Below are positions 37,307 through 44,389 of a stretch of 64,000 nt of DNA, in pieces. Location: NCBI GenBank assembly GCA_051294375.1, contig CM119267.1:11853553-11917552 (forward strand), read 5' to 3'. Position 1 is the stretch's first letter. Every line of letters begins with the position of its first letter. The notes under the pieces were generated by a model. The model ran no database searches. It was given only the letters and a program-made list of their open reading frames with translations, and was not told where the DNA came from. This stretch comes from Paraspadella gotoi. Its lineage: Eukaryota; Animalia; Chaetognatha. Made by a program: the position numbers and the translations under genes.

Positions 37307-39880
37307 TTACCAAAACCTAGACTCTTCCTCGATCTCTTTGAACAAAACCATCCCCGGAGAGGTCGGTGAGAGTAGGGGGGCGTTGGACGACGACGTCGAC
37401 GGCTTCTGAGTTCGCGTCGGCGCCAAAGACGACGAATCCGGAAACGAAAAGACGGGCGTTTCGTCGTTTGCGTTCTCGTTGTTGTTGAAGGAACTTTTCG
37501 GGCTTTCATCGATGTCGCTATTGTGCATGTGACGAACGGTTTTGCTGTTTCTTCGGTTGGGGCTTTTCCGATTTTTTAATTTCGGCCTTTGAGTGACGAA
37601 ATAGTCGCGAGGCTCATTTTCTATATGCTCATATTCCTCGTCGTGGTCGTCATTGTCGCCTTCGTCGCCTCATAAAACAAAATAGCAACGGTTTGAAATT
37701 TCAGATTTTTTTTATTTTTATTAATAAATTAATAATTCATTTCTGATGTTCTACTGTTCAATTTACTGTTATCTAATTTGTGTTCTGTAAAACCACTGTC
37801 GCCCATGGTCCTCGAACCCGCTGTATGAATAAATACAAATACAAAATTATATTTATCTGTTAGAGGTACCTGCTGCTCTTCCTTTCTTGAGCCCGTTATC
37901 CCTGATCGAAGGGCGATGCGCTGCAATGGTAACGACGAAGTAAATTAACAATAACCATATGAACATTGTAACAATGTACTTTATCAATCGATTTTATTTC
38001 TCCACTCACTCATGGACCGTGTCCACCGTCTCCGTCTTCCAGCATCCGACGCGAAGGTCCAGGGATCGAAGACGGCGTAAAAGATGACCATGACGACGAG
38101 GGTGAAGAGAAGGTCGGCCAAACATGCCCACCCGTAGTTGTCGAAGATCAACTCGAAGATGTGGATCTCGGATCGAATTTGGAAGGAAACTTCCATCCCG
38201 CCCGCACGGTTGATCGCCATGAGGCTATGGTTCTTTAGCGGCACCACCGCTGGAGAGGAGATATACTGTTTGGAGCGAATAAAATATTATAAAATATAAT
38301 AATATGATTTTAAAACTATTCATTTCTTGTTAGATAAGGCTCAGCTTTGCATTTAAGTTTAAAAGGTGTAAAACTTTTTTTTAATTTTTATACCAATAAA
38401 CGAACCAGTTTCTCGAGGGCGGCGATCCATTTTCCCTCAGCCTCGTAATAAACATTTTTCGATACTGGGTCTTTGAAGATGGAGATCCGATTGCCCTGCA
38501 TGACGTCGCAGCCTTGTCTGAAGTAAAAGTAGAGAGCGATTGAAACATAGATGATATAATTTGAGATTGGACCCAGTGTCTCCCAAGCGCCGAGAATCAG
38601 GCGTCGCAAGATGGAGGGCTTTTGATGTTTCGATCCGGATTTTGGGATCTGGCGAAGAAAGAAAAAAGAGTTAAGTTTATTTTTTGGTTAAACATTATCC
38701 CGTCCAAAAGTTTTTCACTTCGGGGGACAAAATGTGAATCAGAGAGAGCGGAAAATTGTTCGAGCCGGATGTAATAAAACGTCTAATGAGATTAAAAATG
38801 GGCAAAAATAACTTCCAGCCATTCGAGCATTCACTACCAGAAAAGTTAAAACTTTAAAACAACAAAAAATGAGAAGAAATAGACAGATTATGGTCCCAAA
38901 CATCTGTTACCGGTCTGAAGAGATGAGCCGGAATGACTCTAAACAGCGTCACGAACGCGACCGCCGTCGCCAAGCTGCCGACGTCCCTCTCCAAAGCAAT
39001 GGAGATCGACGCGCCGAGGAAGCATCCGAGAAACATGGCTGAACACAATGACCACGCAACGAAGGGAGTGAAGATCCCCAGCAGCAGGTAGAGGTTCGTC
39101 GGTTTCTTGCCCGCCGCCAGCTTAACGAGGTGACTGCCATACAGCTTTCTGACGACCGTGAAGGCCATGTTGGCCGTGCCGACGACCAGTTTGATGAGCG
39201 GGAGGTACTCGGCGACAGATCGCGTCGTTTCGGTGTTGCTGCAGTCTGCGATCAGGCAGTCCAATCCTTGGTTCATGCCGCGGCTCAGGCCTTTCGACCA
39301 GCAATGCGAAGGGCCGATGGCAGTCCACCTTTGGGAGCAGGTGGCATTGCGTCCGTAGATTGTGGCGTCATCGCCAATCTCGGCGAACCTCAGCCCGTCC
39401 CAACTTGTCTTCTCGAGATCTTCTGGGATCGGGAGGAACATGCGCTTCTGGCCCAAAGAGATCCGTAGGATAAAGAGCTGGAGGGTATTCTGTCCGATTC
39501 CCTCGCAGAGCACCTCGGATATTGAAAACATGGCCAAGACTTTCTCCCTGTGACTCTGTTTAGACCTGGCCTCGTGACTTAGGCTCTTTGAGGCGTCTGC
39601 TTTAGGGTTGTTACGATCCTTCCATTCTTTCCTCCACGCTTGAAGAGAGTCCAGCAGCTCGTCCCAGTGGAAAAAGATCGGTCCGAGGTTAAACATGAAA
39701 AGAAAAGTGTAGAGCATTTTGGTGGAGGCGTCCTCCAAGCGCGGGTAGATCTTCTGACAGGTGGACATAATCCTCATCCCGATGAAGAAGTTGATGACGG
39801 CCCCGATTGCCATGAAGAGAAAGGTGAAGACGGCCCAGTTGACGTCGCCTTCGTAGCCGTAGTAAAGGAAGAGGTACCTG

Positions 39881-39930
<50 letters not shown>

Positions 39931-42900: not shown

Positions 42901-44389
42901 AGAGATGAATGCCATTGTGAATTTACTAATAAATTGCTCATAACATTACGTACCTATTTCGCAGAGTTTACCCGTGAACCCTCGTTCGCACTTGCATTCG
43001 AAAGCATTGATGTTATCCAGACAGATTCCATTGACGCAAGGATTTGAGACACATTCGTCGATATCTATGTATTAGTAAAATAGAGAGAGTCAATAAACTA
43101 TTCCGCATTAATTTAAATAATCCGCCTATGCCTTACCCCTTTGACAAATTCCTAAACTGTCAGAGATGTTTACTTTTTTTCGCGCTAAAAAAAAAAGATG
43201 TTAGTGATAATAAATAATCCCGAAAATTTATTTTGCCGGTAAGTTCAACGTACCTTCTACTAACTCACTGTAAATGAATTCGTTCAGTTGTATAACAGTT
43301 TCATTCGTAAATATTGACCGTGAATTATCAGATTCTTTAATATCAATCACAACATCGAGAAGTGCACCGCGATTCTCTGTTAGCAATAAAATTTGCTGAA
43401 TACTAACGAATGTTTTTTTTAATTTTAAAGCTCAAACATACATGTATATTGTATAAACATTTTACCTCCAATCCAAAGTTTCATGTTGGAAAGCGCGGCA
43501 TAATCGTTCACTACACGAATTTCAATAGCATAACAATAATAATAATATTCATTCGCAAGGGTCTTTTCAGCAAAAAATTCATGGCCCTTTCCACCCTGTA
43601 GATGTTTATCATAGCCGTATCGGCAATCATTGTTAATAGCTATTATATCGTGTTGCTGCTTTACACTATAGTGCGCTTTGAATTTTATTTTTTCCACTTT
43701 AACCGGCCAATCAAAGTGGAACCACCATCGAACGGTTTTCTGTTTAAACTCTTTAGAGCACCAATAATCATACGGACTCCCGTCAAGAAACGCATCTTTT
43801 GGGGGGTAGTTAGCGATTTTGCTATATATTTCCGAGGTAGCAACTGCAACTCCATTTTTTTCTTTGTCCAAAGTTAATGCTGAAAATTTTGTAGTCACAT
43901 TTATTGGATTAATGATTTAAGATATTGTAATTGTTAATATTTAAAAAAATACCCTTTTCAGGAGCAAGATACCAATATTTTCCCGCCATGTCAAAATTCT
44001 TCAACAACGATTTGATTTCACTTATTTTATCAGTGTCCAGAACTGCCAACCGGCGACCGTCTTCAAGTAGAAACAAAGTTATCAAAATTTAAACAATGAA
44101 CAAAATTTTAAAATTGAGAAAATTACTCCTTTTTCTATATCCAGTTCCAGTTAAAACTTCCCATCGTTTTTTCCTGCTTACCCTCACTTTCGCACCATTG
44201 CCCGTGTTCAGCGATGCTTCCATCATTCCACACGACCGAATATTCGAAACCATTCATGGTTCCGAGGTGAACCATCGGCGGAGATTCCGACAACGACGAC
44301 GAAGCACGATAAACGAACAAAAATAGGAATAGAACATAACTTGCAATGATCCCGCTAAAATTACATATTTGCACGACAAGAGGCGCCAT
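37307..44389 (-). CDS. ~1,500-aa receptor-like XK-related protein: signal peptide - CTLD-like - discoidin/F5-8C-like - 6x Ca-binding EGF - PLAT/LH2 - Sushi - Ig-like - TM - XK-related multi-pass domain - acidic tail
   Basis: 19 phase-consistent GT-AG exons: 44389-44182, 44060-43953, 43879-43466, 43376-43254, 43184-43137, six EGF exons between ~43064 and ~41905 (DIDEC...CxCxxGxxGxxC), 41827-41471 (PLAT-like), 41348-40607 (Sushi, Ig-like, TM, start of XK), 39877-38911, ~38649-38406, ~38265-38010, ~37920-37870, ~37820-37767, ~37668-37307. XK hallmarks: [32 protein letters not shown] and [24 protein letters not shown]. Confidence 0.85.
39977..40509. mobile_element. Tc1/mariner-type MITE in the intron that splits the first XK helix
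   Basis: TA|CAAGGTCTTCAATCTTGACTGATACGAAAA...TTTTCGTATCAGTCCAGATTGAAGACCCTG|TA: ~30-bp TIR and TA target duplication. Confidence 0.85.

Follow-up and report, generated by a model that had tools for sequence, protein, structure and literature searches.

The window analysed here, a 64,000-nucleotide stretch of the genome of Paraspadella gotoi, contains a gene on its minus strand (44389-37307) with a stop-free model of 18 exons and GT-AG introns, encoding 1518 amino acids if intron 12 is spliced; the exon set is RNA-supported. The start codon lies at 44389 and the stop codon at 37309-37307. Model and contigs place exons 1-9 at 44389-44182, 44060-43953, 43879-43466, 43376-43254, 43184-43137, 43064-42954, 42871-42758, 42646-42536 and 42477-42364, and exons 10-18 at 42200-42087, 42018-41905, 41827-41471, 41348-40607, 39877-38911, 38648-38406, 38265-38010, 37920-37870 and 37668-37307 (all features below lie on the minus strand). 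Contigs of a single run, which is of low depth and carries no RNA label on its record, match the window with at least 99% identity and skip 16 of the 17 introns, with CT..AC ends; contig depths were not used. Fourteen of these joints were found in a first contig comparison and one in a second, while the splice 40607-39877, which leads from the Sushi-Ig-TM exon into the XK exon, came from both combined (a contig junction plus a loose contig end at 40605). Two further runs compared with the locus gave no useful contigs. The gene is real, and the exon model bears out what had originally been predicted for its start and stop, for the content of the single exon 41348-40607 (Sushi, Ig-like domain, TM helix, linker and first XK helix) and for the phase 2 splice from there into 39877. 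An alternative chain (19 exons, 1536 amino acids) is likewise stop-free with GT-AG ends; an optional candidate exon of 54 nt at 37820-37767 is skipped in a contig. A joint 42881-44701 (AG..CT, 20 letters) was put down to a repeat and discarded, and no paralogue of the gene was found within the window.

The protein begins with a likely signal peptide (residues 1-32, 44294-44389), which has a hydropathy peak of 2.21 at residues 8-26, is preceded by an in-frame stop and is the only signal-peptide-like stretch of the gene. It is followed by a short N-terminal module encoded by the remainder of exon 1 together with exon 2 (43953-44293), a beta-sandwich module in exon 3 (43466-43879), six phase 1 exons with one EGF repeat of the calcium-binding type each (residues 301-526, 41905-43064) and a module of 119 residues in exon 12 (41471-41827). 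Six EGF repeats had been predicted, and all six were recovered by Pfam EGF (E 4.6e-10 to 8.8e-6) and by a pattern check for the calcium-binding consensus plus six cysteines (6/6), with spliced joints between them. The predicted Sushi/CCP module (about residues 646-707, 41164-41348) also scores above the cut-off (PF00084, E=2e-4, 22.1 bits versus 20.7) and is followed by a membrane-proximal Ig-like domain (about residues 715-800, 40885-41142). The remaining labels are unconfirmed. The N-terminal module, earlier called lectin-like, has no lectin match in Pfam; exon 3, discoidin/galactose-binding-like by eye, has no relevant Pfam match and no PDB sequence match, and its low-confidence single-sequence model (pLDDT 49) finds generic beta-sandwiches (best Z 6.4, rmsd 2.8, 93 aligned); exon 12, PLAT-like by eye, has no relevant match in Pfam, PDB sequences or a homologue search, and a word-index search for relatives longer than it found none. 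The domain scan expected to return an XK domain after EGF_CA, PLAT and Sushi returned EGF, Sushi and XK-related PF09815, and no PLAT match.

The Ig-like domain is defined by residues C722, W732, G736, C784 and C798, near-invariant in ten Ig-bearing relatives, and by the structural model of one of these, P0010, in which the region forms an Ig/PKD-like sandwich (Z 8.3, rmsd 2.2, 65 aligned; the matches, at Z 8.3-8.6, are middling); Foldseek on this model gave only Ig-like chains among the 49 matches listed. Next comes an additional helix, TM0 (residues 807-826, 40807-40866, hydropathy 2.45), then a basic cytosolic linker. Seven Lys/Arg within the 15 residues after TM0, as opposed to one before it, give a positive-inside bias, which agrees with the earlier suggestion that the extra helix keeps the XK part in its normal topology. 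A TM0-equivalent helix is present in all ten Ig-bearing relatives. Together, the Ig fold of P0010, the recurrence of TM0 and the charge bias point to a basigin/neuroplastin-like layout, with the N-terminus predicted outside and a membrane-proximal Ig domain next to a single-pass helix.

The original assignment of the C-terminal region to the XK family holds at the level of sequence: XK-related PF09815 matches above its cut-off (E=3.7e-9, 36.4 bits versus 24.8, profile positions 20-146 of 337), and the acidic cluster is kept. A family profile searched against the PDB had rat XKR9 as its best sequence match (E=7e-7); a single-sequence PDB search with exon 14 gave no XK match. By Pfam, the first XK repeat alone is recognised in the sequence of the window protein. 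Profile alignment to 7dce_X and 7p14_A places D888 and D892 (XKR8 D26 and D30) in XK TM1 (40607-40695), while exon 14 (38911-39877), from TM2 onwards, contains W907 (XKR8 W45) as well as E1014 and E1018 (E137 and E141). Two extracellular inserts follow from the alignment of the relatives: one of about 80 residues between TM3 and TM4 (39211-39453), beta-rich in the P0010 model, with one N-glycan sequon and four cysteines invariant in 13 of 13 sequences, and one of about 75 residues before the last TM helix (38149-38516), which spans intron 15, is beta/alpha in the model and contains C1262, invariant in 10 of 10. The last XK helix (residues 1344-1362, 38068-38124, hydropathy 2.49) aligns with that of the relatives and leads into a cytosolic tail of about 157 residues (37307-38067), acidic, rich in Ser and Pro and not conserved, with three DxxD motifs.

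The XK fold was modelled for P0010 (22% identity), and its transfer to the window protein rests on an alignment over the full length. The P0010 model (pLDDT 66) superimposes with its residues 340-833 on XKR8 (8xej_X; Z 20.9, rmsd 4.2, 295 aligned), and it also matches XKR4 (9boj; Z 20.1, rmsd 3.7, 287 aligned) and XKR9 (7p16; Z 18.6, rmsd 3.9, 278 aligned), the next match having Z 8.7. The comparison with XKR8 and XKR9 structures proposed at the outset therefore succeeds for both repeats, on a relative's model rather than on one of the window protein itself. The two-repeat fold with eight TM helices and re-entrant helices is present in the P0010 model and, by alignment, would be present in the window protein together with the two inserts. 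Predicting how Ig-TM0 and the XK domain of P0010 pack together, without use of an alignment, gave an uninformative score of 0.00.

Relatives with Ig, TM0 and XK in one uninterrupted ORF number ten (P0005, P0007, P0010, P0012, P0013, P0019, P0020, P0021, P0026 and P0027). Their identity with the window protein is 20-28% (family members share 20-47%), their TM0 ends 46-93 residues ahead of the D26 equivalent, and by blastp P0010 aligns across residues 698-1408. PF09815 matches 9 of the 13 true relatives scanned, seven above cut-off; two of the 15 phmmer matches (P0009 and P0015) were repetitive non-XK proteins and were dropped. The profile search for relatives returned only six proteins and is leaky, because it missed some of its own seeds. 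A word-index search found no longer relatives of exon 14, ESM Atlas gave no usable match for P0013, and no related loci were found in metagenome or viral contigs. Sequence comparison describes the Ig-TM-linker-XK core as a conserved, unnamed family, and the literature searched yielded no description of it. Distal modules differ between family members. Neither EGF nor PLAT was found in the ten Ig-bearing relatives (Pfam scan of P0001-P0015; precomputed domains), nor a signal peptide that is clear (N-terminal hydropathy at best 1.43), in ORFs that exon or contig ends may have truncated, and the window Sushi module has no similarity to the relatives' N-termini. The outer Ig domain and both extracellular inserts are conserved in the relatives and the cytosolic tail is not. 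The conserved family, the two inserts and the parallel to XKR8-basigin discussed below are additions to the original prediction.

We propose that one spliced gene combines an Ig domain, an extra helix and an XK domain with a likely signal peptide and an EGF arm, and that its product is a single-chain receptor predicted to scramble lipids where the arm binds, a reading to which we give slightly less than an even chance. From Sushi to XK the protein is encoded in one spliced reading frame, and its Ig-TM0-XK core is conserved. Further upstream, splicing of intron 12 (41470-41349, 122 nt), located between the PLAT-like exon and the Sushi exon, would attach the signal peptide, EGF and PLAT-like exons. 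We regard this attachment as likely and no firmer, because the sole contig covering intron 12 (41533-40605) retains it; the intron that follows has been removed in that contig. The original prediction, which had EGF and multipass exons in one mRNA and held the fusion not to be a gene-merging error, therefore stands for Ig-TM-XK (a spliced contig and one ORF in each of ten relatives), for all EGF joints and for 40607-39877, and lacks splice support at the joint to the EGF arm: no contig spans 43064 to 39877 or links an EGF exon to an XK exon, and none covers 41559-41534, a gap that in one low-depth run proves nothing.

The retained intron might instead indicate two main products, which we consider unlikely: a secreted EGF/PLAT-like protein of 660 residues, predicted from read-through to a stop at 41426-41424, and a shorter Sushi-Ig-TM-XK protein with a separate start, such as the ATG at 41376, which lies inside intron 12 in frame with exon 13. 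The long receptor-scramblase would therefore be rare or absent. Such an arrangement would fit the retention of intron 12 next to a removed intron, its donor, the weakest of 17 (1.7 bits; others 2.8-9.1), the in-frame ATG and the relatives without EGF or PLAT. However, the shorter product would have no signal peptide, yet its Cys-rich, sequon-bearing Sushi-Ig part must face outside, and the contig that covers the intron and reaches the XK exons begins inside coding exon 12. The stop of the retained form lies 2334 nt ahead of the last junction, and a stop that far upstream is typical of unfinished or decay-bound RNA. An AATAAA after this stop is uninformative, as 8 of the 17 introns contain one, and the retention was seen in one low-depth run. 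Intron 12 has an intron-like GC content (0.21), a phase 1/phase 1 fit and an acceptor score within range; other right-phase donors before the stop score -0.9 to 2.7, and the higher-scoring ones would remove most of exon 12. Its retention may yield either a secreted 660-residue form or non-productive RNA.

Whether the XK domain of the proposed receptor would scramble lipids can be judged against XKR8, in which D26, D30, E137 and E141 are needed for activity, and K134A and R42A abolish it (PMC8500837). Acidic TM1/TM3 residues also form the Ca2+/vestibule triad of Xkr4 (PMC10495444, PMC12334663). The window protein keeps the equivalents of all four acidic residues and of W45. Among the 12 covering relatives D888, D892 and E1018 are kept in all and E1014 in 11, W907 in only four. 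Two residues required in XKR8 are lost in the window protein, an observation against scrambling: K134, on TM3, is S1011 and R42, in the TM1-2 loop, is D904, with Lys or Arg in 0/12 relatives at either position. The position of D129 is V, L or H. The fold alone is no proof of activity, because purified XKR9 did not scramble (PMC8298096). The fusion might be real and its XK part non-scrambling, serving an adhesion receptor for signalling or anchoring in the membrane or, like XK for VPS13A, acting as a dock for a lipid-transfer protein. The loss of the K134, R42 and D129 equivalents across the family, the recognition of the first XK repeat only by sequence, the inactive XKR9 and the partnership of XK with VPS13A (PMC10938166) would agree with this, but in a family with only 20-47% identity few positions are as well conserved as the four acidic residues, and the XKR fold is kept in both repeats; on balance, we doubt that the domain is inactive.

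An ordinary apoptotic scramblase, activated by caspases or kinases and using its ectodomain for folding and trafficking or for unrelated adhesion, is improbable. XKR8, XKR9 and XKR4 are cleaved in the tail and CED-8 at the N-terminus (PMC12334663, PMC10938166), and the long acidic tail here has its three DxxD motifs about 40 residues after the last helix; the sequence around these motifs, however, is acidic and of low complexity, the family showed no conserved caspase site, and it is the outer Ig domain and both extracellular inserts that are conserved instead of the tail. An error of gene model or assembly, or a gene that is dead, is very improbable as the source of the fusion. In its favour is that the evidence derives from a single assembly window; against it, the spliced contigs match this window, every exon is stop-free and the Ig-TM-XK junction, for which this explanation is already largely refuted, is unbroken in ten independent ORFs.

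For the single-chain receptor, the closest comparison is human XKR8 bound to basigin or neuroplastin (PDB 7DCE, 8XEJ). XKR8 requires an Ig-domain single-pass partner, of which one Ig domain suffices, and basigin E230, an acidic residue just after the TM helix that pairs with XKR8 R284, is essential (PMC8500837). By analogy, the window protein resembles XKR8 with its partner built in: both systems share the two-repeat XK fold (as modelled for P0010), accompanied by one membrane-proximal Ig domain and one single-pass helix, which here belong to the XK chain itself and precede the XK domain. It differs from XKR8 in its two extracellular inserts of 75-80 residues and from basigin in the basic residues directly after TM0. 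The parallel is an analogy, because no acidic counterpart of E230 follows TM0 directly; family profiles had no basigin match in the PDB and gave no sequence sign that Ig-TM0 descends from basigin. XKR4, XKR9 and CED-8 (PDB 9BOJ, 7P14/7P16) share the fold and the acidic TM1/TM3 triad, but their N-terminus is cytosolic, they lack an ectodomain and their caspase sites are known, whereas Sushi, Ig and TM0 precede TM1 on the same exon here.

Ig-TM0 may act in cis as basigin and neuroplastin do in trans, in folding and surface delivery, while the distal modules could keep the protein where cells touch each other or the matrix. The acidic TM1/TM3 site would move lipids as in XKR4 and XKR8, and ligand binding to the arm, or tension on it, would probably bias this site through insert 1, located at the outer end of TM3, with local phosphatidylserine exposure that needs no cell death as the outcome. 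A broader generalisation, doubtful if conceivable, would be a class of adhesion scramblases in which a shuffled EGF/Sushi/Ig arm gates XK via the conserved Ig domain and TM3 cap, binding to neighbours or matrix exposes phosphatidylserine locally in living cells and retention of intron 12 adds a secreted decoy.

To our knowledge, the XK scramblases characterised so far are under intracellular control, by caspases or kinases, or depend on separate partners. A naturally fused counterpart of the XKR8-basigin pair, in which one chain brings along its Ig-plus-helix subunit and caps the gating helix, would make it directly testable how outside signals lead to local, non-lethal phosphatidylserine exposure, as in fusion, pruning and fertilisation. 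Even if inactive, it would represent a receptor that uses an XK fold in the membrane. A similar design, with a variable EGF/Sushi/Ig-type arm, a conserved membrane-proximal domain and a multipass unit, is that of adhesion GPCRs and polycystin-1-type receptors. Pfam found no GAIN/GPS in the window protein or the scanned relatives, and the membrane unit, 7TM or a channel in those receptors, is an XK fold here.

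The core of the fusion, consisting of an Ig-like domain, an additional helix (TM0), a linker and the XK domain, is solid and conserved. GT-AG exon joining on the minus strand gives an open reading frame (ORF) from 44389 to 37307 with 19 exons and 1,536 aa and without stops, in agreement with the originally predicted gene coordinates, and likewise recovers the predicted exon 41348–40607 (exon 13, Sushi-Ig-TM0) and its phase-2 splice into 39877. Splicing was assessed with contigs of the sequencing run X1, which contains 0.58 of the sampled words and is not registered as RNA; its contigs behave as spliced cDNA because introns are skipped at CT..AC ends and 44738–45600 is uncovered. 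Fourteen splice joints were listed from these contigs and one more was identified; in addition, the joint between exons 13 and 14 is established by X1 record 2, which covers 41533–40605 and then 39872–39239, and by its loose end, whose sequence is that of the start of exon 14, the main XK exon. The X1 contig skips a 54-nt candidate exon (37820–37767, minus strand) that is bounded by AG and GT and keeps the reading frame, and the model therefore comprises 18 exons and 1,518 aa, with 16 of its 17 introns spliced in X1 contigs; the skipped segment is a possible alternative exon of the cytosolic tail. Upstream, an out-of-frame ORF of 73 aa (44475–44254, minus strand) overlaps the main ATG at 44389 and begins within the transcribed leader (X1 contig start at 44516), where it could dampen translation of the main ORF.

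Conservation of the core was followed with exon 14 as phmmer query against 1.84 billion representatives, yielding 15 matches, of which 13 are true relatives and two were dropped as repetitive proteins. Further relatives were added by profile search and cluster look-ups; all are ENA records, one of which is found in Logan as well, and their contigs measure 0.7–5.6 kb. Sixteen representatives were aligned. In each of the 10 that extend far enough N-terminally to cover the Ig/TM0 region, a single uninterrupted ORF encodes an Ig-like domain, TM0 and a linker ahead of XK TM1. The alignment spans about aa 700–1400 of the window protein, with 20–28% identity (up to 40% for fragments), 50 near-invariant columns and 46–93 aa between the end of TM0 and the equivalent of XKR8 D26 in the relatives. 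In longer relatives the place of the Sushi module is taken by another Ig domain and a stretch rich in Cys, and the distal arm thus varies on a conserved core. Neither EGF and PLAT modules nor a clear signal peptide were found in the relatives, although exon or contig ends may have truncated their ORFs. The window protein branches with P0001, P0003 and P0005, apart from a tight sub-clade (P0007, P0008, P0010, P0013, P0020, P0021, P0026 and P0027; 38–47% identity to P0010) that has the XK part within one ORF and could represent an expanded set of paralogues. A long repeat tail rich in Thr, Pro and Ala is present in P0008.

Of the modules in the original prediction, all six EGF exons match Pfam EGF and fit the Ca-binding pattern, the Sushi module is upheld narrowly above the cut-off (E=2e-4), and the XK domain is confirmed by an XK-related match covering the first repeat only (E=3.7e-9). 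The EGF and Sushi exons, along with nearby hyaluronidase and LDLa matches, point to an animal as the likely source. The lectin, discoidin and PLAT modules have no relevant match in Pfam or among PDB sequences and are so far labels given by eye; a single-sequence model of exon 3, the discoidin-like module (pLDDT 49), returned generic beta-sandwich matches only.

The long EGF arm is likely attached to the core, which hinges on intron 12 (41470–41349) between the PLAT-like exon 12 and exon 13. This intron is retained in the sole X1 contig covering that stretch, and the read-through product stops at 660 aa, 2,334 nt ahead of the last junction. Scored with a leave-one-out matrix built on 16 confirmed sites, its donor is the lowest of 17 (1.7 bits; others 2.8–9.1). 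The segment looks intron-like because of its low GC content (0.21, versus 0.37 and 0.50 for the exons on either side), its phases (1 and 1) and its acceptor of 5.2 bits (other acceptors −3.3 to 9.4). We consider it fairly probable that a spliced long form joining exon 12 to exon 13 exists. The intron also contains an ATG, at 41376, that shares the reading frame of exon 13 but is not followed by a signal peptide.

An AlphaFold2 model of P0010 (19-row alignment, pLDDT 66, pTM 0.55) was compared with 48,161 solved chains. The best matches, covering residues 339–833, were XKR8 (Z 20.9, rmsd 4.2, 295 aligned), XKR4 (Z 20.1, rmsd 3.7, 287 aligned) and XKR9 (Z 18.6, rmsd 3.9, 278 aligned), with the next-best row at Z 8.7; going by this model, both XK repeats are present in the family. 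Residues 97–208 and 210–279 gave middling matches to Ig-like sandwiches (Z 8.3–8.6). Two inserts break up the modelled XK fold, one after TM3 (insert 1, with four invariant Cys, 13 of 13) and one before the last helix (insert 2, with one invariant Cys, 10 of 10), and helix count places both on the outer side. Neither insert featured in the original prediction.

XKR8 scrambling needs D26, D30, K134, E137, E141, R183 and R42 and is restrained by W45 (PMC8500837); in Xkr4, three of the same acids make up the outer Ca2+ or vestibule site (PMC10495444, PMC12334663). With the register taken from family alignments to XKR structures, XKR8 D26, D30, W45, E137 and E141 correspond to D888, D892, W907, E1014 and E1018 of the window protein. 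D26, D30, E137 and E141 are conserved in 12, 12, 11 and 12 of 12 relatives, respectively, and W45 in four; none of the 12 retains an equivalent of K134, R42 or D129. On this evidence scrambling by the window protein is plausible, with the balance leaning modestly in its favour, but not a given; XKR9 is inactive when purified (PMC8298096).

To reach the surface, XKR8 depends on basigin or neuroplastin, both Ig proteins with a single membrane pass; one Ig is enough, and the helix lies beside XKR8 alpha9 (PMC8500837). The conserved Ig-TM0 is the same kind of unit but resides in the same chain, and the simplest reading is that it would serve as an integral accessory subunit that carries adhesion modules as an extension. 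The parallel is one of analogy, because the family has no sequence match to basigin and the window protein no acidic residue after TM0. Insert 1, at the outer end of TM3, would be a likely route of outside control because contact of this helix with TM1 activates Xkr4 (PMC10495444). Among titles and abstract openings of non-subscription papers, no natural fusion of XK to an ectodomain was found; a database record of this layout may exist.

Between TM0 and XK TM1, the cytosolic linker (40805–40700, minus strand) contains an Asp with small residues after it, a possible caspase site going by the usual caspase specificity. Cleavage at this position would release the XK domain, as cleavage at the N-terminus does in CED-8; the putative site is not conserved among the aligned relatives.

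Elsewhere in the window, ORFs resembling a fibrinogen C-terminal exon (58835–59254, minus strand) and the final helix of a two-pore K+ channel (15895–16338, plus strand) were assigned by eye, with no supporting Pfam match, and an LDL-receptor class A-like repeat (51120–51581, minus strand) has a weak match below the cut-off (E=0.003). Upstream of the gene, on the opposite (plus) strand, lies a hyaluronidase exon (48039–48446; Glyco_hydro_56, Pfam E=1.8e-12).
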